Part shown: positions 2,853 through 11,875 of the stretch, one piece after another | Numbering within the stretch: position 1 is the first letter of the stretch | Layout: each line of letters starts with the position of its first letter | Source: a virus | Taxonomy: Duplodnaviria > Heunggongvirae > Uroviricota > Caudoviricetes | Strand: one strand, 5' to 3' | DNA length: 11,875 nucleotides | Virus record (IMG/VR): IMGVR_UViG_2698536366_000007 | The notes under the pieces: model-generated | The model's database searches: none | The model's input: the letters and a program-made list of their open reading frames with translations, nothing else | What the model was told of the DNA's origin: nothing | Translations under genes and position numbers: made by a program

Positions 2853-3233
2853 ATGACCGAGCGCATAGAATTTGTTTTACCTTACCCGCCGACGGTGAAC
2901 ACTTACTGGCGTCGTCGTGGCAGCACATATTTTGTATCAAAAGCCGGGGAGCGTTATCGCCGGGCAGTGGCGCTTATTGTTCGCCAGCAGCGGCTGAAAT
3001 TAAGCCTGTCCGGAAGGTTGGCAATAAAAATTATTGCAGAACCACCGGATAAGCGCCGCCGTGACCTGGACAATATTCTGAAAGCGCCGCTGGATGCGCT
3101 GACGCATGCGGGGTTGCTAATGGACGATGAGCAGTTTGATGAAATCAATATCGTTCGTGGTCAGCCAGTATCTGGTGGACGTCTGGGGGTGAAGATTTAT
3201 CCCATAATGCTTGAAGGGCAGGTCAAAAAATGA
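2853..3233 (+). CDS. rusA: RusA-like Holliday junction resolvase
   Basis: 126 aa with the RRRDLDN acidic motif and overall similarity to E. coli RusA; ATG immediately follows the upstream stop. Confidence 0.8.
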   Translation: MTERIEFVLPYPPTVNTYWRRRGSTYFVSKAGERYRRAVALIVRQQRLKLSLSGRLAIKIIAEPPDKRRRDLDNILKAPLDALTHAGLLMDDEQFDEINIVRGQPVSGGRLGVKIYPIMLEGQVKK

Positions 3234-4051
3234 AACTGGAAGATTTACCGAAATACTACTCCCCAAAATCCCCCGGCCTGACTGATGCATCGGCCTCAAC
3301 GTCGAAAGATGCGCTGAGTATCACTGATGTGATGGCCGCGCAGGGCATGACACAGAATCGGGCTGAGATGGGGGTTTCTGCGTTCCTTGGGAAAATGGGC
3401 ATTAGTATGAATGACAGAGAGCGGGCAACAGAATTGCTGACAGAATATGCACTCAGTCGGTGTGATCGCGTGGCGGCGTTAAGAAAACTCCCGGCAGAAA
3501 TAAAACCGGCAGTGATGCGTATTATGGCTTCGTATGCGTTTGAAGATTATGCCCGTAGCGCGGCGAGCAAAAAACAGTGCCCCTGCTGTCACGGAAAAAA
3601 ATTTATTGAAAGCGAGGTTTTTACAAACAAGATCCAGTATCCGGATGGTAAGCCGCCGGTATGGGCAAAGTGTACGAAAGGTGTGTATCCGTCTTACTGG
3701 GAAGAATGGAAAAAAGTCAGGGAGGTGGTAAAAGTTGCCTGTCCGGAGTGTGGCGGAAAGGGTGAGGTTTCCACCGCCTGTAAGGATTGCCGTGGGCGTG
3801 GTGTCGCCATTCATCGTGAAGAGTCGGTAAAACGTGGTATGCCTGTTATCAGAGACTGCCAGCGTTGTGGTGGTCGTGGCTATGAAAGACTACCATCAAC
3901 GGAGGCATTTAATGCTATATGCGAGGTGACAAACCAGATAACACGCGCGTCATGGGAAAAAACAGTTAAGAAATTTTATGATGCGCTGGTGACCCGGTTT
4001 GATATTGAAGAAGCATGGGCTGAGCGGCAGTTAAAAAAGGTAACTAGGTAA
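3230..4051 (+). CDS. Q: late-gene antitermination protein Q (phage 82/Qin type, zinc-binding)
   Basis: 273 aa; several CxxC pairs (CPCCHGKK, CPECGGKG, CKDCRGRG, CQRCGGRG); ATGA overlap with rusA; immediately followed by a PR'-like promoter and terminator. Confidence 0.8.
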   Translation: MKLEDLPKYYSPKSPGLTDASASTSKDALSITDVMAAQGMTQNRAEMGVSAFLGKMGISMNDRERATELLTEYALSRCDRVAALRKLPAEIKPAVMRIMASYAFEDYARSAASKKQCPCCHGKKFIESEVFTNKIQYPDGKPPVWAKCTKGVYPSYWEEWKKVREVVKVACPECGGKGEVSTACKDCRGRGVAIHREESVKRGMPVIRDCQRCGGRGYERLPSTEAFNAICEVTNQITRASWEKTVKKFYDALVTRFDIEEAWAERQLKKVTR

Positions 4052-4623: not shown

Positions 4624-5682
4624 ATGCTTAATACTGTAAAAATATCCAGTTGTGAGTTAATCAACGCCGACTGCCTGGAATTTATCCGGTCGTTACCCGA
4701 AAATTCTGTTGACCTGATAGTCACGGACCCGCCGTACTTTAAAGTGAAGCCTGAGGGCTGGGATAACCAGTGGAAGGGCGACGATGATTACCTGAAGTGG
4801 CTGGACCAGTGTCTGGCGCAGTTCTGGCGGGTGCTGAAACCTGCCGGAAGTCTTTACCTGTTCTGTGGTCATCGCCTGGCATCTGATATCGAAATCATGA
4901 TGCGTGAACGCTTCAGTGTGCTGAACCATATTATCTGGGCGAAGCCGTCCGGACGCTGGAACGGATGCAACAAGGAAAGCCTGCGGGCGTATTTCCCCGC
5001 CACAGAGCGCATTCTGTTCGCGGAACATTATCAGGGGCCGTATCGTCCGAAAGATGCCGGGTATGCGGCGAAGGGCAGTGCACTGAAACAGCATGTGATG
5101 GCCCCGCTGATTTCTTACTTTCGTGATGCGCGAGCTGCCCTGGGGATAACGGCAAAACAGATTGCAGATGCCACAGGAAAGAAAAACATGGTGTCGCACT
5201 GGTTCAGTGCCGGTCAGTGGCAGTTGCCGAATGAAAGCGATTATCTGAAATTACAGGCGCTGTTTGCCCGGGTGGCAGAAGAGAAGCATCGGCGTGGTGA
5301 ACTGGAAAAGCTCCACCACCAGCTGGTGGATACGTATACCTCACTGAACCGGCAGTATGCGGAGCTGCTGAGTGAATATAAACATCTGCGGCGGTATTTT
5401 GGCGTGACGGTGCAGGTGCCGTATACCGATGTGTGGACGCATAAACCGGTGCAGTTCTATCCCGGGAAACATCCGTGCGAAAAACCGGCAGAAATGCTGC
5501 AGCAGATAATCAGCGCTAGCAGTCGTCCGGGTGACCTGATTGCAGATTTTTTCATGGGGTTGGGTTCGACAGTGAAAGCGGCACTGGCGCTCGGGCGTCG
5601 TGCAATTGGCGTTGAGCTGGAGACTGAACGTTTTGAGCAGACGGTTCGGGAAGTACAGGATTTAGTCAGCCAGAACGGATGA
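4624..5682 (+). CDS. DNA methyltransferase, beta-class amino-MTase (N6-adenine or N4-cytosine), phage-borne and apparently orphan
   Basis: 352 aa; N-terminal DPPY motif (VDLIVTDPPY) and C-terminal FxGxG AdoMet motif (FFMGLGST); no restriction endonuclease partner seen in the window. Confidence 0.85.
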   Translation: MLNTVKISSCELINADCLEFIRSLPENSVDLIVTDPPYFKVKPEGWDNQWKGDDDYLKWLDQCLAQFWRVLKPAGSLYLFCGHRLASDIEIMMRERFSVLNHIIWAKPSGRWNGCNKESLRAYFPATERILFAEHYQGPYRPKDAGYAAKGSALKQHVMAPLISYFRDARAALGITAKQIADATGKKNMVSHWFSAGQWQLPNESDYLKLQALFARVAEEKHRRGELEKLHHQLVDTYTSLNRQYAELLSEYKHLRRYFGVTVQVPYTDVWTHKPVQFYPGKHPCEKPAEMLQQIISASSRPGDLIADFFMGLGSTVKAALALGRRAIGVELETERFEQTVREVQDLVSQNG

Positions 5683-5722
5683 TATTGAAGAATTAATTAC
5701 GCGTCGTTATTATGCGGCTCCC

Positions 5723-5798
5723 GGCCCTTTAGCTCAGTGGTGAGAGCGAGCGACTCATAATCGCCAGGTCGCTGGTTCAAATCCAGCAAGGGCCACCA
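5723..5798 (+). tRNA. ileZ: tRNA-Ile (anticodon CAU, ileX-like minor isoleucine tRNA), copy A
   Basis: Cloverleaf by eye: acceptor GGCCCTT/AAGGGCC, anticodon loop CTCATAA, T-arm GCTGG-TTCAAAT-CCAGC, encoded CCA; close to E. coli ileX. Confidence 0.85.
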
Positions 5799-5805
5799 TC
5801 ACATA

Positions 5806-5882
5806 CCGCCATTAGCTCATCAGGAAAGAGCGCCAGCCTTCGAAGCTGGCTGCGCGGGGTTCAAGTCCCCGATGGCGGTCCA
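5806..5882 (+). tRNA. argN: tRNA-Arg (anticodon UCG), copy A
   Basis: Acceptor CCGCCAT/ATGGCGG, anticodon stem CCAGC/GCTGG with loop CTTCGAA, T-arm CGGGG-TTCAAGT-CCCCG, encoded CCA. Confidence 0.75.
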
Positions 5883-5895
5883 TTATCTGCATCAT

Positions 5896-5972
5896 GCGTT
5901 GTTAGCTCAGCCGGACAGAGCAATTGCCTTCTAAGCAATCGGTCACTGGTTCGAATCCAGTACAACGCGCCA
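5896..5972 (+). tRNA. argO: tRNA-Arg (anticodon UCU), copy A
   Basis: Acceptor GCGTTGT/ACAACGC, anticodon stem ATTGC/GCAAT with loop CTTCTAA, T-arm ACTGG-TTCGAAT-CCAGT, encoded CCA. Confidence 0.85.
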
Positions 5973-5986
5973 CACTTATTTTCCCT

Positions 5987-6012
5987 GGCTCGCTTTTGCG
6001 GGCCTTTTTTTT
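5987..6012 (+). terminator. candidate intrinsic terminator after tRNA cluster copy A
   Basis: Imperfect GC stem (GGCtCGC / GCGGGCC) followed by a T8 run. Confidence 0.45.
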
Positions 6013-6416
6013 AAATGTCTCACAATTCAGACGGTTGACAGTTGTCTGTTTTGCGGGGAGTTTGTTAAAAGAAACTGGCATGGTGAATCCCCCTGTGCGG
6101 AGGGGCAATCAGCGAGTAGGTATATGGGATAATCGCGGATTCAGGTGCTGGTACTGAATTCACCGGGAGGCACCCGGCATCATGCAATGGCACATAGCGC
6201 CACTCTCCAGCCCTCTCCGGAGGGGCTTTTCTGTGCCGGATACATCACAGTTTCTGGAACCTTAGGTACTACAGTATCAGTCAGGGTGCTATATTTTCAG
6301 ATGTGATGAAAGCCTGTCAGCAGGCAGGGCGTATCGGAAATGACCCAGTAGAGAAAACGTTGACTCAGATACCGGTGCTGAGTTACCGGGAAACCGGCAT
6401 CACATGACCGCTATCC
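6011..6416 (+). repeat. conserved non-coding element X, copy A (core 6011-6227 shared by all three copies; 6228-6416 shared with copy B only)
   Basis: Near-identical to 8281-8685 and, for the core, to 10923-11130; no convincing ORF; contains TTGACA at 6035-6040 and two GC hairpins sharing CGGAGGGG. Confidence 0.7.
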
Positions 6417-6814
6417 TGAGGTGTACTGGCAATAGCGGACACTACCATTTGTTCTTTTTTTAAGCAGCCATCTGATGATATTTTTCCCTGAAGGCTGCCG
6501 GGGAGATATTCCCCAGACGAGAGTGACGACGCTGACGATTGTAGAAAATCTCAATGTATTCCCGTATTACTGAGATGGCTTCATCCCGGTTATTAAAACG
6601 ATAGTGGCTCAGGCTCTCATTTTTCAGCGTTCCCCAGAAGCTTTCCATCGGAGCGTTGTCGTAACAGTTACCTTTACGCGACATTGATGTTTTCAGACCA
6701 GACTGCTCCTGTATGACCCGGTAATCGTATGCGCAGTACTGTGAACCTCGATCAGAGTGGTGGATTAGCCCGGCAGGTGGGCGCTGGCTCCTGAGCGCCA
6801 TAAACAGGGCTTTA
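6417..6814 (-). mobile_element. IS600 fragment (398 bp from the orfB end, including the terminal inverted repeat)
   Basis: Matches 8686-8083 of the complete copy, then switches abruptly into Q coding sequence at 6815. Confidence 0.85.
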
Positions 6815-7232
6815 TCCAGTATCCGGATGGTAAGCCGCCGGTATGGGCAAAGTGTACGAAAGGTGTGTATCCGTCTTACTGGGAAGAATGGAAAAAAGTC
6901 AGGGAGGTGGTAAAAGTTGCCTGTCCGGAGTGTGGCGGAAAGGGTGAGGTTTCCACCGCCTGTAAGGATTGCCGTGGGCGTGGTGTCGCCATTCATCGTG
7001 AAGAGTCGGTAAAACGTGGTATGCCTGTTATCAGAGACTGCCAGCGTTGTGGTGGTCGTGGCTATGAAAGACTACCATCAACGGAGGCATTTAATGCTAT
7101 ATGCGAGGTGACAAACCAGATAACACGCGCGTCATGGGAAAAAACAGTTAAGAAATTCTATGATGCGCTGGTGACTCGGTTTGATATTGAAGAAGCATGG
7201 GCTGAGCGGCAGTTAAAAAAGGTAACTAGGTT
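6815..7232 (+). pseudogene. 3' fragment of a second Q antiterminator gene (about 139 codons), stop codon lost through a small deletion
   Basis: About 99% identical to 3634-4051, with SNPs and a 6-bp deletion that removes the stop; fused to the IS600 fragment. Confidence 0.8.
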
Positions 7233-7258
7233 GATTTTTCCGGAATCTGTGGTAAATT
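7231..7258 (+). promoter_or_regulatory. second copy of the PR'-like promoter
   Basis: Same -35 TTGATT and extended -10 TGgTAAATT as at 4057-4084. Confidence 0.45.
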
Positions 7259-7307
7259 CGTCATAACTATGGGCGTTTTATGCCTGACGTTAGAAGAGTT
7301 TCTACAA

Positions 7308-7329
7308 CCCGCCGCCGAGCGGGTTTTTT
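7308..7329 (+). terminator. second copy of the tR'-like terminator
   Basis: Same CCCGC-cgccga-GCGGG stem plus T-run as at 4134-4155. Confidence 0.65.
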
Positions 7330-7368
7330 ATTGCGGAATTAATTACGGACCGTTATTATTCTGCTCCC

Positions 7369-7444
7369 GGCCCTTTAGCTCAGTGGTGAGAGCGAGCGAC
7401 TCATAATCGCCAGGTCGCTGGTTCAAATCCAGCAAGGGCCACCA
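7369..7444 (+). tRNA. ileZ: tRNA-Ile (CAU), copy B
   Basis: Identical to 5723-5798. Confidence 0.85.
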
Positions 7445-7451
7445 TCACAAA

Positions 7452-7531
7452 CCGCCATTAGCTTATCAGGAAGAGCAGACGACACGATAACAGGGTTGTT
7501 GGTGCGGGGGCGGGTCCCCGATGGCGGTCCA
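7452..7531 (+). pseudogene. degenerate tRNA-Arg-like sequence (probable tRNA pseudogene), copy B
   Basis: Acceptor and D arms match the copy-A tRNA-Arg(UCG), but the anticodon arm is replaced by unrelated sequence and the T-loop lacks TTCRA. Confidence 0.6.
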
Positions 7532-7544
7532 TTATCGGTATTCA

Positions 7545-7621
7545 GCGTTGTTAGCTCAGCCGGACAGAGCAATTGCCTTCTAAGCAATCGGTCACTGGTT
7601 CGAATCCAGTACAGCGCGCCA
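7545..7621 (+). tRNA. argO: tRNA-Arg (UCU), copy B
   Basis: Same as 5896-5972 with one acceptor-stem change (A to G, giving a G-U pair). Confidence 0.8.
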
Positions 7622-7731
7622 TATTCATTCTTCCAGATTCCTTCCGGCAGAGCCTTATACTGAAATATACCTGGCTCAGGATATTGTTGAAAATATTTTA
7701 TGTTTGTCAAAAATAAAAGTTCTGTTAAGTA

Positions 7732-8085
7732 TTGATTGAGTGTTTGTTATACGGTCTAATGGTTTTTTCAGCATTAAATATTTATCATTCATATGGTGTG
7801 GGTAGAGTGAATATTGATGAGGCGTCGGGGTGTTTCATCCTTAGGCAGCGTATTGATATAGTCAATGCAGCACGAGCAAAGGCCTTCAGCCGTTTGACAG
7901 TTTTGTTCTGTACTCCTGATCGTCTTTCGGGAAGAGACGTTATTATTCTGAATAGTGATGCTATACAGAGGGTTTGCGATGAGTTCATGGTTGCTAATTC
8001 AGAATTATTTGCTCTTGTTCAGGAGTACAACAGAATAGCCAGGACCTGTGGTATGGATGAACTTCGGATTACTCATCTGGGGTAG
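7732..8085 (+). CDS. hypothetical cargo protein (up to 117 aa) in AT-rich DNA, copy 1; start codon uncertain
   Basis: Longest ORF in the post-tRNA slot; track start 7732 is TTG, first in-frame ATG at 7759, in-frame GTGs at 7798 and 7807; no strong SD; no family recognised. Confidence 0.45.
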   Translation: MIECLLYGLMVFSALNIYHSYGVGRVNIDEASGCFILRQRIDIVNAARAKAFSRLTVLFCTPDRLSGRDVIILNSDAIQRVCDEFMVANSELFALVQEYNRIARTCGMDELRITHLG

Positions 8086-8280
8086 ATACATATCTGGATT
8101 ATCACCTGTTACGGTAAAAAGTGATTGCTTACTGTTTTTGTGAATGGCATTGCAGCAGCCGGATAATGTCAGTGCTGGCTGACGGTGTGCTGGTGGCGGG
8201 TGTGGTGGTTGTTGCTTTCCCGTTGCTGAAAAAGAAAACGCCAGACTGTTAGCCGGGTATCAGTTAGCGGGAGAAATTTT

Positions 8281-8685
8281 TAAATACTTCACAATTCAGG
8301 CGGTTGACTGTTGTCTGGTTTGCGGGGAGTTTGTTAAAAGAAACTGGCATGGTGAATCCCCCTGTGCGGAGGGGCAATCAGCGAGTAGGTATATGGGATA
8401 ATCGCGGATTCAGGTGCTGGTACTGAATTCACCGGGAGGCACCCGGCATCATGCAATGGCACATAGCGCCACTCTCCAGCCCTCTCCGGAGGGGCTTTTC
8501 TGTGCCGGATACATCACAGTTTCTGGAACCTTAGGTACTACAGTATCAGTCAGGGTGCTATATTTTCAGATGTGATGAAAGCCTGTCAGCAGGCAGGGCG
8601 TATCGGAAATGACCCAGTAGAGAAAACGTTGACTCAGATACCGGTGCTGAGTTACCGGGAAACCGGCATCACATGACCGCTATCC
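8281..8685 (+). repeat. conserved non-coding element X, copy B
   Basis: Matches 6011-6416 (SNPs in the first 40 bp, identical thereafter up to the IS600 junction). Confidence 0.7.
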
Positions 8686-8728
8686 TGAGGTGTACTGGCA
8701 ATAGCGGACACTACCATTTGTTCTTTTT

Positions 8729-9547
8729 TTAAGCAGCCATCTGATGATATTTTTCCCTGAAGGCTGCCGGGGAGATATTCCCCAGACGAGAGTGACGACG
8801 CTGACGATTGTAGAAAATCTCAATGTATTCCCGTATTACTGAGATGGCTTCATCCCGGTTATTAAAACGATAGTGGCTCAGGCTCTCATTTTTCAGCGTT
8901 CCCCAGAAGCTTTCCATCGGAGCGTTGTCGTAACAGTTACCTTTACGCGACATTGATGTTTTCAGACCAGACTGCTCCTGTATGACCCGGTAATCGTATG
9001 CGCAGTACTGTGAACCTCGATCAGAGTGGTGGATTAGCCCGGCAGGTGGGCGCTGGCTCCTGAGCGCCATAAACAGGGCTTTACCTGTCAGCTCTTTTGT
9101 CATGCGCTCTCCCATGGCGTAGCCGACAATTTCGCACGTATAAACATCTTTGATGCCAGCGAGGTACAACCATCCCTCCTGTGTGGCAACATACGTCAGG
9201 TCCGCCACCCAGACCTGATTTGGTGCTGTAGGAGCGAACGTCTGGTTCAGCAGATTTGGCGCAACTGGCAGATTGTGGTTCGAGTTCGTAGTCGCTCTGA
9301 ACTTGCGTTTCTGCTTACAGCGTAGCCTTAGCTCCTTACGAAGACGTGCCAGTCGGTCACGACCAACGATGATGCCATTCTCTGCCAGCTCCGTCTGGAG
9401 CCGCCGGGTTCCATATGTTTCGCGAGTGCGGATATGTGCCACCTTAATCTCCAGTTTTAGCCGCTCATCACTTTGTTTTCTGTCTGAGGGTTCATGCTGT
9501 ACCCAGTTGTAATAACCGCTCCTGGATACACCAAATACCTGACACAT
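8729..9547 (-). CDS. IS600 transposase OrfB (DDE integrase domain), expressed as an OrfAB fusion by -1 frameshifting
   Basis: 272 aa from the first ATG; IS3-family OrfB sequence; the frame is open upstream into the orfA 3' end. Confidence 0.9.
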   Translation of the reverse strand: MCQVFGVSRSGYYNWVQHEPSDRKQSDERLKLEIKVAHIRTRETYGTRRLQTELAENGIIVGRDRLARLRKELRLRCKQKRKFRATTNSNHNLPVAPNLLNQTFAPTAPNQVWVADLTYVATQEGWLYLAGIKDVYTCEIVGYAMGERMTKELTGKALFMALRSQRPPAGLIHHSDRGSQYCAYDYRVIQEQSGLKTSMSRKGNCYDNAPMESFWGTLKNESLSHYRFNNRDEAISVIREYIEIFYNRQRRHSRLGNISPAAFREKYHQMAA

Positions 9548-9582
9548 CGCTTCAATGGGAAATTGTTGTCGCCATTGTTCGA

Positions 9583-9885
9583 TTAACGCGTATTTTTCAG
9601 CGACTCCTGTGCAAAATACGCTGTTGCTTTTTTTAATATATCTCGCTCAAGGCGAGCTTCATTTAACGCCTTACGCAGTTGCAGAATTTCAGATTCCAGT
9701 TCAGCCACCGTGCGGGAACCAGGAGTACCGAGCCCTTTTCTGGCGGCGGTAACCCATTGTCCTAAAGTGCCTTCAGGAAGAGATAATCGGGAAGCGCCTT
9801 CACTGATCGAAAGTTGATTTTCAAGAACCGTTCTGACAGCTTCGGCTTTGAACTCTTTAGAGTAACGTTGGGTTTTTCTGCTCAT
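9583..9885 (-). CDS. IS600 transposase OrfA (helix-turn-helix / leucine zipper)
   Basis: 100 aa; A AAA AAG slippery heptamer on the coding strand (plus-strand T7 run at 9628-9634) near its 3' end. Confidence 0.9.
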   Translation of the reverse strand: MSRKTQRYSKEFKAEAVRTVLENQLSISEGASRLSLPEGTLGQWVTAARKGLGTPGSRTVAELESEILQLRKALNEARLERDILKKATAYFAQESLKNTR

Positions 9886-10001
9886 TATTAGCTCCTTCTG
9901 ATGCCATTCTATTTCAGGAAGGAGTGTCCGTTAAACTCAGGCTACCTCAAGGGTGGTTTTTTATTGCGGAATTAATTACGGACCGTTATTATTCTGCTCC
10001 C

Positions 10002-10077
10002 GGCCCTTTAGCTCAGTGGTGAGAGCGAGCGACTCATAATCGCCAGGTCGCTGGTTCAAATCCAGCAAGGGCCACCA
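10002..10077 (+). tRNA. ileZ: tRNA-Ile (CAU), copy C
   Basis: Identical to 7369-7444. Confidence 0.85.
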
Positions 10078-10084
10078 TCACAAA

Positions 10085-10164
10085 CCGCCATTAGCTTATC
10101 AGGAAGAGCAGACGACACGATAACAGGGTTGTTGGTGCGGGGGCGGGTCCCCGATGGCGGTCCA
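10085..10164 (+). pseudogene. degenerate tRNA-Arg-like sequence, copy C
   Basis: Identical to 7452-7531. Confidence 0.6.
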
Positions 10165-10177
10165 TTATCGGTATTCA

Positions 10178-10254
10178 GCGTTGTTAGCTCAGCCGGACAG
10201 AGCAATTGCCTTCTAAGCAATCGGTCACTGGTTCGAATCCAGTACAGCGCGCCA
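10178..10254 (+). tRNA. argO: tRNA-Arg (UCU), copy C
   Basis: Identical to 7545-7621. Confidence 0.8.
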
Positions 10255-10364
10255 TATTCATTCTTCCAGATTCCTTCCGGCAGAGCCTTATACTGAAATA
10301 TACCTGGCTCAGGATATTGTTGAAAATATTTTATGTTTGTCAAAAATAAAAGTTCTGTTAAGTA

Positions 10365-10718
10365 TTGATTGAGTGTTTGTTATACGGTCTAATGGTTTTT
10401 TCAGCATTAAATATTTATCATTCATATGGTGTGGGTAGAGTGAATATTGATGAGGCGTCGGGGTGTTTCATCCTTAGGCAGCGTATTGATATAGTCAATG
10501 CAGCACGAGCAAAGGCCTTCAGCCGTTTGACAGTTTTGTTCTGTACTCCTGATCGTCTTTCGGGAAGAGACGTTATTATTCTGAATAGTGATGCTATACA
10601 GAGGGTTTGCGATGAGTTCATGGTTGCTAATTCAGAATTATTTGCTCTTGTTCAGGAGTACAACAGAATAGCCAGGACCTGTGGTATGGATGAACTTCGG
10701 ATTACTCATCTGGGGTAG
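10365..10718 (+). CDS. hypothetical cargo protein (up to 117 aa), copy 2
   Basis: Identical to 7732-8085. Confidence 0.45.
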   Translation: MIECLLYGLMVFSALNIYHSYGVGRVNIDEASGCFILRQRIDIVNAARAKAFSRLTVLFCTPDRLSGRDVIILNSDAIQRVCDEFMVANSELFALVQEYNRIARTCGMDELRITHLG

Positions 10719-10922
10719 ATACATATCTGGATTATCACCTGTTACGGTAAAAAGTGATTGCTTACTGTTTTTGTGAATGGCATTGCAGCAGCCGGATAAT
10801 GTCAGTGCTGGCTGACGGTGTGCTGGTGGCGGGTGTGGTGGTTGTTGCTTTCCCGTTGCTGAAAAAGAAAACGCCAGACTGTTAGCCGGGTATCAGTTAG
10901 CGGGAGAAATTTTTAAATACTT

Positions 10923-11130
10923 CACAATTCAGGCGGTTGACTGTTGTCTGGTTTGCGGGGAGTTTGTTAAAAGAAACTGGCATGGTGAATCCCCCTGTGC
11001 GGAGGGGCAATCAGCGAGTAGGTATATGGGATAATCGCGGATTCAGGTGCTGGTACTGAATTCACCGGGAGGCACCCGGCACCATGCAATGGCACATAGC
11101 GCCACTCTCCAGCCCCTCTCCGGAGGGGCT
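10923..11130 (+). repeat. conserved non-coding element X, copy C (core only)
   Basis: Matches the 6011-6227 core with two differences, then diverges into unique AT-rich sequence. Confidence 0.7.
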
Positions 11131-11162
11131 GTTTATATTGATTTTGTCAGATGTGAGTAAAC

Positions 11163-11196
11163 TCCTTATGGACTTTGTTGTTTTAGTCCATAAGGA
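11163..11196. terminator. perfect 12-bp stem hairpin (TCCTTATGGACT ...10 nt... AGTCCATAAGGA), probable terminator for the minus-strand ORF
   Basis: Exact inverted repeat overlapping the stop of the 11166-11501 minus-strand ORF; U-tract is weak on both strands. Confidence 0.5.
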
Positions 11197-11501
11197 CATA
11201 TTTGCAGAGTGCAACGGTTATTAAAGCATTCATTCAATACGTTATCTGTATTTGTAGGGCATTCCTGGCTATTTTTGATTGAATTCCAGAATGTTTTATT
11301 GAATGGTACTACGTTGTAAATGGTTACAGGTAGCACTTTGTTATTGAGCATGATGCCTGTGTGAGTCAGTGTAAATATACTTTCAGGAGGTAAGAAAGCA
11401 TCCGATTGATACCAGATTATTAATTTTATTTTACTCCATATGACTGAAAAAGATATTCCGCATGATGGCTGGATAACTGTATCAATCACAATCCACTTCA
11501 T
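11166..11501 (-). CDS. hypothetical protein (111 aa) in an AT-rich island, oriented against late transcription; moron-like
   Basis: ATG with SD AAGGA at 6-nt spacing on the minus strand; hairpin at its 3' end; AT-rich codon usage distinct from the phage backbone; no family recognised. Confidence 0.5.
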
Positions 11502-11761
11502 TTAGTTTCCTTGTTTATGCCTTGCTGGTGATGTTCTGAAAAGTATAAATGATATTTTTGAATGTAAACCATAGAGCAGAATTATTTTTCTGATGTTGTT
11601 TATTGTTTATTTAAATGCAGGGTGGTTTATATCTCGTCTTGTAGTTTATCCATGCATATCTGCTTGATAATCAGGTTTTTATTTAAGGTATGGTTTTGTG
11701 TTTTTTCTGTATTACATGTCAGGTATTTTAAAGAATTATTTTTCAGATGGTGGAAAGAACC

Positions 11762-11875
11762 ATGGCATTTAAACACTATGATGTTGTCAGGGCGGCGCCG
11801 CCGTCAGATCTTGCGGAAAAGCTGACACATAAACTGAAAGAGGGCTGGCAGCCGTTTGGTAGTCCGGTGGCCATA
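11762..11875 (+). CDS. 5' end of a conserved lambdoid late-region protein (possibly DUF1737-like), continuing beyond the window
   Basis: ATG 11762 (MAFKHYDVVRAAPPSDLAEKLTHKLKEGWQPFGSPVAI...) with a purine-rich stretch upstream; GC content returns to backbone level; family assignment is from memory. Confidence 0.55.
   Translation, partial: MAFKHYDVVRAAPPSDLAEKLTHKLKEGWQPFGSPVAI

Follow-up and report, generated by a model that had tools for sequence, protein, structure and literature searches.

Features of the iraL locus

We analyse here a DNA stretch of 11,875 nucleotides from a virus of the Caudoviricetes (IMG/VR record IMGVR_UViG_2698536366_000007; the whole stretch is called the window in the following), focusing on an AT-rich island near its right end that carries a 111-amino-acid open reading frame (ORF) on the minus strand. 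It is almost certain that this ORF is iraL, a horizontally acquired gene for an anti-adaptor protein of RssB, and that it belongs to a lambdoid prophage, in whose accessory region it is placed between the antiterminator gene Q and the lysis genes. An earlier reading of the letters, called the original prediction below, had described the island, the ORF with its Shine-Dalgarno (SD) sequence and a hairpin at its stop, and had proposed a candidate moron with a product that was not recognised. The features of the locus are listed below, where STnc100 is a small RNA gene and RACE denotes rapid amplification of cDNA ends.

11137-11760: AT-rich iraL island, 624 bp, GC content 32.4%, delimited by composition and by comparison with phages phi296 and 933W and with copies A and B of element X
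11166-11501, minus strand: iraL coding sequence, 111 amino acids plus TAA stop, ATG start, encoding an RssB anti-adaptor of the IraM/IraL family
11166-11261, minus strand: four-cysteine (Cys4) tail, residues 81-111 of the ORF
11512 to 11508, minus strand: SD sequence AAGGA, 6 nt (AACTAA) before the ATG at 11501 and within the RACE-defined 5' untranslated region
11502-11534, minus strand: 5' untranslated region, 33 nt, its start placed at 11534 from the identity with the RACE product of strain CFT073
11547 to 11542, minus strand: -10 hexamer TATACT, at -13 to -8 from that start, read against the RACE start
11568 to 11563, minus strand: TTTACA, read as the probable -35 hexamer; the spacer is 15 nt
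11163-11196, minus strand: 3' stem-loop, a perfect 12-bp stem (arms 11163-11174 and 11185-11196, 100% complementary) with a 10-nt loop
10951-11140, plus strand: STnc100 gene, copy C of element X (Rfam RF02076, 132.4 bits), the left border of the island
11110-11131, plus strand: terminator hairpin of STnc100, a terminator-like site from the scan
11762-11875, plus strand: start of a DUF1737 ORF, an N-terminal remnant of nanS-p, the right border of the island, divergent from iraL

It was noted in the original prediction that the sequence turns AT-rich immediately after copy C of a repeated element X. This is borne out, with an extent of 624 bp and with borders that are fixed independently by the comparison of phages and copies. 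Element X itself is STnc100 (RF02076), present in three copies that score 122-132 bits, with a gathering score of 47. By composition count the GC content is 0.324 over 11137-11760, as compared with 0.494 over the rest of the window; the lowest value for any other 624-bp segment elsewhere is 0.402, which is above that of the island. By part, the iraL ORF has a GC content of 0.345 and the intergenic region 11502-11762 has 0.295.

The homology with phage phi296 ends at 11136 and restarts at 11761, an unrelated 224 bp joining the STnc100-like element to nanS-p in that phage. The homology with phage 933W restarts at 11761 too, giving the same right-hand break. Within the window, STnc100 copies A and B part from copy C after 11134 and run into 186 bp of other sequence and from there into an insertion sequence (IS) element. 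The island is missing at the same junction in both related phages and after copies A and B.

Identity of the ORF

The ORF at 11166-11501 begins with ATG, and its translation equals the one given in the original prediction, including the five cysteines. The protein that was not recognised there is a known one. It is identical to IraL of Escherichia coli CFT073 in 110 of 111 amino acids (the difference being L74S), with 334 of 336 nucleotides identical in the gene and 1019 of 1026 over the locus 10850-11875. The CFT073 gene (YcgW, c1429; in the potB prophage/island) was renamed iraL by Hryckowian et al. (mBio 2014, PMC4045071), by whom a gene is counted as iraL when it matches the CFT073 iraL coding region over its full length (100%) with a nucleotide identity of at least 95% (PMC4045071). 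The window coding sequence, with its 334 of 336 nucleotides, falls within this definition, and its promoter and upstream region falls within the corresponding one for promoters (at least 96% identical to CFT073, where the start was mapped by RACE).

This identification is also consistent with the profile and structure searches. The NCBIfam model NF007393, 'anti-adapter protein IraM', gives 162 bits with a curated cut-off of 121, residues 1-110 of 111 aligning with profile positions 1-113 of 114, and RefSeq calls the matching gene 'anti-adapter protein IraM' and its neighbour 'DUF1737 domain-containing protein'. The only match in the PDB is the IraM chain 8twd_A (phmmer E 6e-31), with 50 of 78 residues (64%) identical over residues 1-78. 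The identical protein, with S74, is encoded by Shigella sonnei chromosomes including that of strain 53G (HE616528.1); the S. sonnei 53G-type locus is 99.95% identical to window positions 9955-11875, and for the exact S74 protein the index lists 4016 blocks of the collection, with many S. sonnei genomes.

The relation to IraM of E. coli K-12 is more distant, with 58.6% amino-acid and 68.8% nucleotide identity, the alignment being ungapped over 107 residues. That the ORF is IraM proper, of the K-12 type, is ruled out by the 68.8% nucleotide identity, which is below 95%, by an unrelated upstream region and by a match to the PhoP box at the level of chance, as discussed below. The ratio of nonsynonymous to synonymous substitution rates (dN/dS) in comparison with iraM is about 0.15 and the differences are distributed as 27/18/55 over the codon positions, which indicates that the reading frame is under selection. 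As for the two observations that would have spoken against the gene according to the original prediction, a frame not conserved in relatives and absence of expression, the frame is kept and expression has been published. In PHROGs the protein belongs to family phrog_4407, listed under 'unknown function', which shows only that the phage databases lag behind the bacterial literature. Since the ORF is iraL itself, the gene is already known.

Comparison with the structure of IraM

Residues 1-78 of IraM form a PmrD-like beta-barrel that covers the RssB receiver domain at its alpha4-beta5-alpha5 face and keeps sigma-S out (PMC10844676). The interface between IraM and RssB, seen in the complex of PDB 8TWD, consists of three residue clusters (PMC10844676). 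Cluster I, which makes the contacts with the RssB N-terminal domain (I4, I6, W22, K26 and I42), is identical in the window protein at 5 of 5 positions. In cluster II, which contacts the C-terminal domain, IraL has T13S and L75I, and in cluster III, which contacts the linker, it has H63N and I64V. Based on this alignment, IraL would adopt the same beta-barrel fold and would contact the RssB N-terminal domain through the cluster I surface; a retained cluster I together with substituted clusters II and III would fit the reported binding of IraL to the N-terminal domain only.

The hydrophobic N-terminus noted in the original prediction does not hold as a signal or membrane segment, since the alignment of residues 1-78 with the barrel of IraM, a cytoplasmic one, starts at residue 1 itself and the maximum 19-residue Kyte-Doolittle mean is 1.44. 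As judged from the alignment, it would correspond to the first strands of the barrel and not to a signal peptide.

Beyond the barrel, the arrangement C81-x10-C92-x4/5-C97-x4-C102, ending with ICPxG, is invariant in 13 of 13 aligned family members, and C14 varies. The tail of IraM was deleted for crystallisation and was described as less conserved and flexible (PMC10844676). In the IraM literature searched for the words cysteine, zinc and metal, these are never applied to IraM. It may be speculated that the Cys4 tail serves as a module for sensing metal or redox state, by which the stability of the anti-adaptor is set.

Promoter, leader and transcript start

The sequence upstream of the gene on the minus strand, CAAGGAAACTAAATG, reads AAGGA, six bases and ATG, in agreement with the SD sequence and 6-nt spacing described before. 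For CFT073 the iraL mRNA's 5' end was determined by 5' RACE as 5'-ACATCACCAGCAAGGCATAAACAAGGAAACCA (PMC4045071). The window, read from 11534 to 11503, matches this 5' end in 31 of 32 bases, with the sole difference at 11504, and from this identity the transcription start is placed at 11534. The AT-rich promoter region that had been supposed upstream of the ORF holds the gene's own sigma-70 promoter, as mapped by RACE in CFT073. The -35 and -10 hexamers and the SD sequence of the window are identical to those of the functional CFT073 promoter.

To follow the variation in allele, promoter and stem, 85 related iraL loci were compared. The -10 hexamer TATACT is invariant in all 85. It also occurs upstream of the K-12 iraM gene and of the family members denoted P0007 and P0008; the members P0005 and P0017 have TATGAT, and a Citrobacter homologue has neither. 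Within the proposed -35 hexamer, 18 of the 85 loci are altered at 11564 (a deletion in 11, G>A in 7), and 11562 is A>T in 41. A point mutation in the -35 is present in iraL2 of strain JJ1886, and the expression of such copies has been questioned (PMC4045071). Because the proposed -35 is polymorphic while the -10 is invariant, the sequences suggest that strains may carry variants of iraL that differ in expression level, as was hinted for JJ1886 iraL2.

The 3' stem-loop

The perfect 12-bp hairpin described at the stop of the ORF is indeed present, with the TAA (11168-11166) inside its 3' arm. A perfect 12-bp inverted repeat of any kind arises in 1 of 2000 mononucleotide shuffles of 11050-11875 (826 bp), and the 121-nt 3' region folds with z = -6.05 relative to shuffles. 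The 5' arm is made by the codons for CPYGL and the 3' arm by the final two codons together with the stop and the next 3 nt, the 3' arm being created by a 4-residue extension, QQSP, that is specific to IraL. The sequence that follows the stem is GUUUAC, with no U-tract, and the next hairpin, at 11110-11131, has its T-run on the strand opposite to iraL.

The stem is perfect in 39 of the 85 loci and has one G.U pair in 42, arising from a synonymous A>G change. A 12-bp stem is found only in the iraL lineage: the paralogue with 75% identity keeps about 6 bp, P0007, P0008 and P0017 have none, and the short stems of K-12 iraM and of the Citrobacter homologue are different ones. A conserved RNA element was considered for this stem-loop and rejected, in view of its restriction to the iraL lineage, the lack of covariation support and a common variant that does no more than form a G.U pair. 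The stem-loop is probably a 3'-end stabiliser or a weak terminator that is specific to iraL; because there is no U-tract and the other lineages of the family do not conserve it, its role as the terminator of a moron can only be presumed.

Genomic context

The window covers the junction at which the early-right part of a lambdoid prophage passes into the late part, and is not a tail region. The upstream prophage genes are DUF968, RusA, Q, a methyltransferase and tRNA genes. The other features of the window are as follows.

1-51: IS end, 51 nt
6417-6814 and 8686-9952: stretches of IS elements of the IS3 family
1794-2852: DUF968, upstream prophage gene
between DUF968 and Q in the gene list: RusA, upstream prophage gene
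3230-4051, plus strand: antiterminator Q
4624-5682: DNA methyltransferase, upstream prophage gene; the upstream genes also include tRNA genes
6049-6238 and 8318-8507, plus strand: STnc100 copies A and B (RF02076)
6460-6996: truncated IS, 178-amino-acid transposase fragment
8729-9547: full-length IS, 272-amino-acid OrfB
10365-10718 and 7732-8085, plus strand: ORF of 117 amino acids, phrog_2873
10754-10885, plus strand: DUF3927 ORF, 43 amino acids

The gene order around iraL is the same in CFT073, 042, strain 131 and one GenBank phage record, namely Q, tRNAs, DUF3927, iraL, a DUF1737 fragment, holin and lysozyme, and in every locus compared iraL lies between STnc100 and the nanS-p remnant. The assignment of the DUF1737 ORF as such a remnant is based on the annotation of the loci of 042, strain 131 and CFT073 and on the homology to the start of nanS-p in phi296 and 933W; nanS-p, a phage esterase gene, is truncated beside iraL. 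As had been stated in the original prediction, the gene is oriented against the late operon, being opposite to Q (3230-4051, plus strand) and to the direction of DUF1737 and holin.

On its other side iraL is convergent with STnc100 copy C, so that read-through from iraL would be antisense to STnc100. One may speculate that such read-through past the U-less stem-loop couples the two regulators. In 933W, stx2AB lies upstream of the STnc100-like segment, and the homology with the window restarts at 11761; from this order, the slot of iraL is one position downstream of that of stx. As a separate observation, the 117-amino-acid ORF and DUF3927 fill the interval between the tRNA and STnc100, the position at which 933W has stx2AB.

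The moron layout proposed in the original prediction is supported by the following points: the island is absent from the junction in relatives, its GC content deviates, it has its own promoter, it is antisense to the late operon and the gene is expressed during growth. Three marks of a moron are thus present, namely the insertion between genes that otherwise adjoin, the deviating composition, and a promoter of its own that would be active in the lysogen; a dedicated terminator is only presumed. It is noted that this does not make the island a free mobile cassette, an idea that was rejected: in all of 80 IMG/VR loci the flanking STnc100 and DUF1737 are joined to it as far as the contigs reach, and recombination has broken the loci near 10910 or near 9955-9963, with no break point at the island borders. 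With the flanks joined and the break points off the borders, iraL behaves as part of one allele of the region, and no free cassette is seen in this sample.

In the wider window, the module of Q', tRNA, the 117-amino-acid ORF, DUF3927 and STnc100 is repeated at 5683-6230, 6815-8499 and 9955-11134, the copies being separated by IS3-family elements. The junction of IS and tRNA in the window has 0 matches in the species-representative genomes, and the largest part of the window that is covered by any complete E. coli genome is 82%. The layout is a Shigella-like, IS-driven rearrangement. Besides, the early region of the prophage contains a hok/sok module, with a sok antitoxin RNA at 891-1066 on the plus strand (Rfam RF01794, 112 bits) beside a hokD-type toxin ORF.

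Distribution and family

The gene iraL is found in 4 GenBank phage records, and at least 242 stretches of IMG/VR encode a relative, the best 80 of which are all at least 98% identical. By BLAST, the 776-bp iraL region is present at a coverage of at least 80% in 1428 of 5426 complete E. coli genomes. A large protein search gave 20 clusters, all of the Escherichia type, to which a species-level genome scan added the Citrobacter homologue, with 54% identity. The family thus surveyed appears to be confined to Escherichia and Shigella plus one Citrobacter genome.

Across the members P0002, P0005, P0007, P0008, P0011, P0017, P0020 and L021, identities to IraL of 88, 75, 69, 65, 63, 60 and 54% are found. 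In the 2014 survey, IraL and IraM were two discrete, non-overlapping classes (PMC4045071); as judged from the sequences compared here, the members at 88, 75, 69 and 65% identity appear to bridge them.

One of these, the paralogue P0005 (75% identity, 111 amino acids, with a QQ/HSP-type tail), is carried by Stx prophages, at 3001-3336 of locus L103 and in locus L104 (CP159994.1, JBDOIK010000007.1), where it lies antisense, with stxB-STnc100 on one side and nanS-p on the other, which is the slot that iraL takes in the window. Two further family members lie in regions from Q to nanS-p with different types of Q, and in both the iraL-type and the Stx-type loci the family gene is convergent with STnc100. 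From this it could be surmised that the IraM-family genes are a cargo with a fixed place in lambdoid and Stx phages, the accessory region from Q to nanS-p, a generalisation that we consider unlikely.

Discussion

The function of IraL has been studied in its bacterial hosts. It copurifies with RssB and interacts in the two-hybrid assay with the RssB N-terminal domain only (PMC4045071). In log-phase CFT073 the sigma-S half-life falls from about 5 min to about 2.5 min when iraL is deleted (PMC4045071), and iraL with 100 bp of its native upstream DNA raises sigma-S in K-12 (PMC4045071). Expression takes place from resident prophages in ordinary growth (PMC4045071). In addition, iraL mRNA is increased on a shift to 37 C (PMC12890032) and IraL levels are increased in a fur mutant (PMC7157518). 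From the near-identity of the sequences, we infer that the IraL of the window, with S74, would also bind RssB and lengthen the log-phase half-life of sigma-S.

Based on these data, we propose the following pathway for the window gene. While the prophage is repressed, the gene's own sigma-70 promoter would drive iraL against the Q-dependent late operon. The 111-amino-acid cytoplasmic product, predicted to consist of a PmrD-like beta-barrel (residues 1-78) followed by the Cys-rich tail, would occupy the receiver domain of RssB, and RssB could then not pass sigma-S (RpoS) to the ClpXP protease. Sigma-S would be stable already in the exponential phase, with the general stress response of the lysogen being pre-armed.

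Among the possible roles named in the original prediction, that in host interaction stands in a broad sense, the general stress response of the host being rewired, and nothing points to one in exclusion or defence; the defence models of PADLOC give no family for IraL at E<=1. A defence, exclusion or secreted role for the ORF is not supported.

Several points weigh against the proposal that the window carries a functional iraL. With the prophage heavily rearranged by IS elements, local transcription could differ from that in CFT073. The 15-nt spacer of the iraL promoter is non-optimal, and a generic promoter scan did not call this promoter, because the tool considers spacers of 16-18 nt only; the two sites that the scan did call are no more than chance would give. 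Position -1 of the promoter (11535) is A in the window and G in CFT073, and 11504, three bases ahead of the ATG, is A in the window (mRNA U) and G in CFT073 (mRNA C). The S74 variant, at codon 74 (11281), is a minority allele, present in 5 of the 85 related loci, and L74S adjoins Leu75 (Ile75 in IraL), an IraM residue that contacts the RssB C-terminal domain. The S. sonnei strain in which a deletion of iraL reduced log-phase sigma-S (PMC4045071) may not carry the S74 allele. Finally, both IraL and K-12 IraM have no match at E<=10 in the current copy of Pfam-A except a chance match to a Nairovirus family, unlike in the precomputed Pfam tables, which place the protein in PF11183 (PmrD); this discrepancy is treated as a difference of version and as no evidence against family membership.

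An alternative reading is that the gene behaves in the manner of K-12 IraM, that is, it is stress-induced in dependence on PhoP/PhoQ and low Mg2+ and its product clamps both domains of RssB. This could be expected from membership of the same family at 59% identity, from a direct repeat, TGTTTATTGTTTATTTA, that resembles a PhoP box with one mismatch and is located 63-79 bp upstream of the start, at 11597-11613, and from the response of iraL mRNA to conditions, as noted above for 37 C and the fur mutant. However, at least as many matches to the box are given by 166 of 200 shuffles, so that the match is at the level of chance and the site was rejected as evidence of control by PhoP; the upstream regions of the window gene and K-12 iraM are unrelated; in log phase without stress IraL raises sigma-S, and it interacts with the N-terminal domain only (PMC4045071); and the contact clusters for the C-terminal domain and the linker are substituted. 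This reading is very improbable.

It could also be argued that this copy of iraL is an inactive remnant of a decayed, IS-ridden prophage, either unexpressed or not binding RssB, owing to the L74S and -1 changes. The window is pieced together from copies of IS3-family elements and from Q'-tRNA-STnc100 modules that are duplicated, the neighbouring nanS-p is truncated, the rarity of the S74 allele was given above, and the expression of copies with a mutated -35 has been questioned (PMC4045071). By contrast, the ORF is intact and its -35, -10 and SD sequences are those of the functional promoter of CFT073, many S. sonnei genomes have retained exactly this protein, and an S. sonnei strain with iraL deleted has lower log-phase sigma-S (PMC4045071). 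An inactive copy is also very improbable. That the protein is a PmrD-like connector acting on another response regulator, such as PmrA, or a factor of defence or superinfection exclusion, as might be supposed from the resemblance of the IraM fold to PmrD alone in the PDB, from the precomputed PF11183 matches, from the 'unknown function' of phrog_4407 and from the typical cargo slot, is the least probable of all, because RssB binding and sigma-S stabilisation are published for iraL (PMC4045071), all residues of the surface in contact with the RssB N-terminal domain are conserved, and neither a PADLOC match nor a signal peptide or membrane segment is found.

The identification as iraL in a lambdoid prophage is thereby retained, and the gene can be compared with the systems that are known. 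The window shares with CFT073 the -35, -10 and SD sequences and the neighbours, DUF3927 with STnc100 at one end of the gene and the DUF1737 remnant with holin at the opposite end; it differs in L74S (the S. sonnei allele), in the changes at 11535 and 11504, and in the IS-rearranged wider prophage. K-12 IraM (YcgW, b1160, next to prophage e14) has the same N-terminal-domain contacts, five cysteines and the ending ICPYGLK. By contrast with IraL, which acts in unstressed log phase, it is induced by Mg2+ starvation from an unrelated upstream region; it binds both domains of RssB whereas IraL binds the N-terminal domain only; and it lacks the QQSP extension and has a different genomic context. RssC of Salmonella is reported to be of the same family, with 49% identity to iraL in a ClustalW alignment of the genes (PMC4045071); this protein, restricted to Salmonella, was not recovered in the protein search or the species genome scan and is likened here by description only.

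PmrD (PDB 4HN7) is likewise small, binds a response regulator at its receiver domain and is the sole other protein in the PDB with the IraM fold, but it protects phospho-PmrA, its target being PmrA rather than the RssB of IraL. With the classical morons and lysogenic-conversion genes that lambdoid phages carry in the region from Q to lysis (stx, bor and lom), iraL shares a deviant composition, an own promoter, a patchy presence at the junction and expression in the lysogen. It differs from stx, which is co-oriented with and dependent on late transcription, in being antisense and independent of induction.

It is noted that the protein left unrecognised at first is a published regulator, the biological significance of which is already understood. 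The points added here are the exact borders of the island, the identification of element X as STnc100, the members that appear to bridge IraL and IraM, one of them beside stx, and the Cys4 motif. As a prophage gene that raises RpoS in growing uropathogenic E. coli and Shigella, iraL may aid stress survival and niche adaptation.

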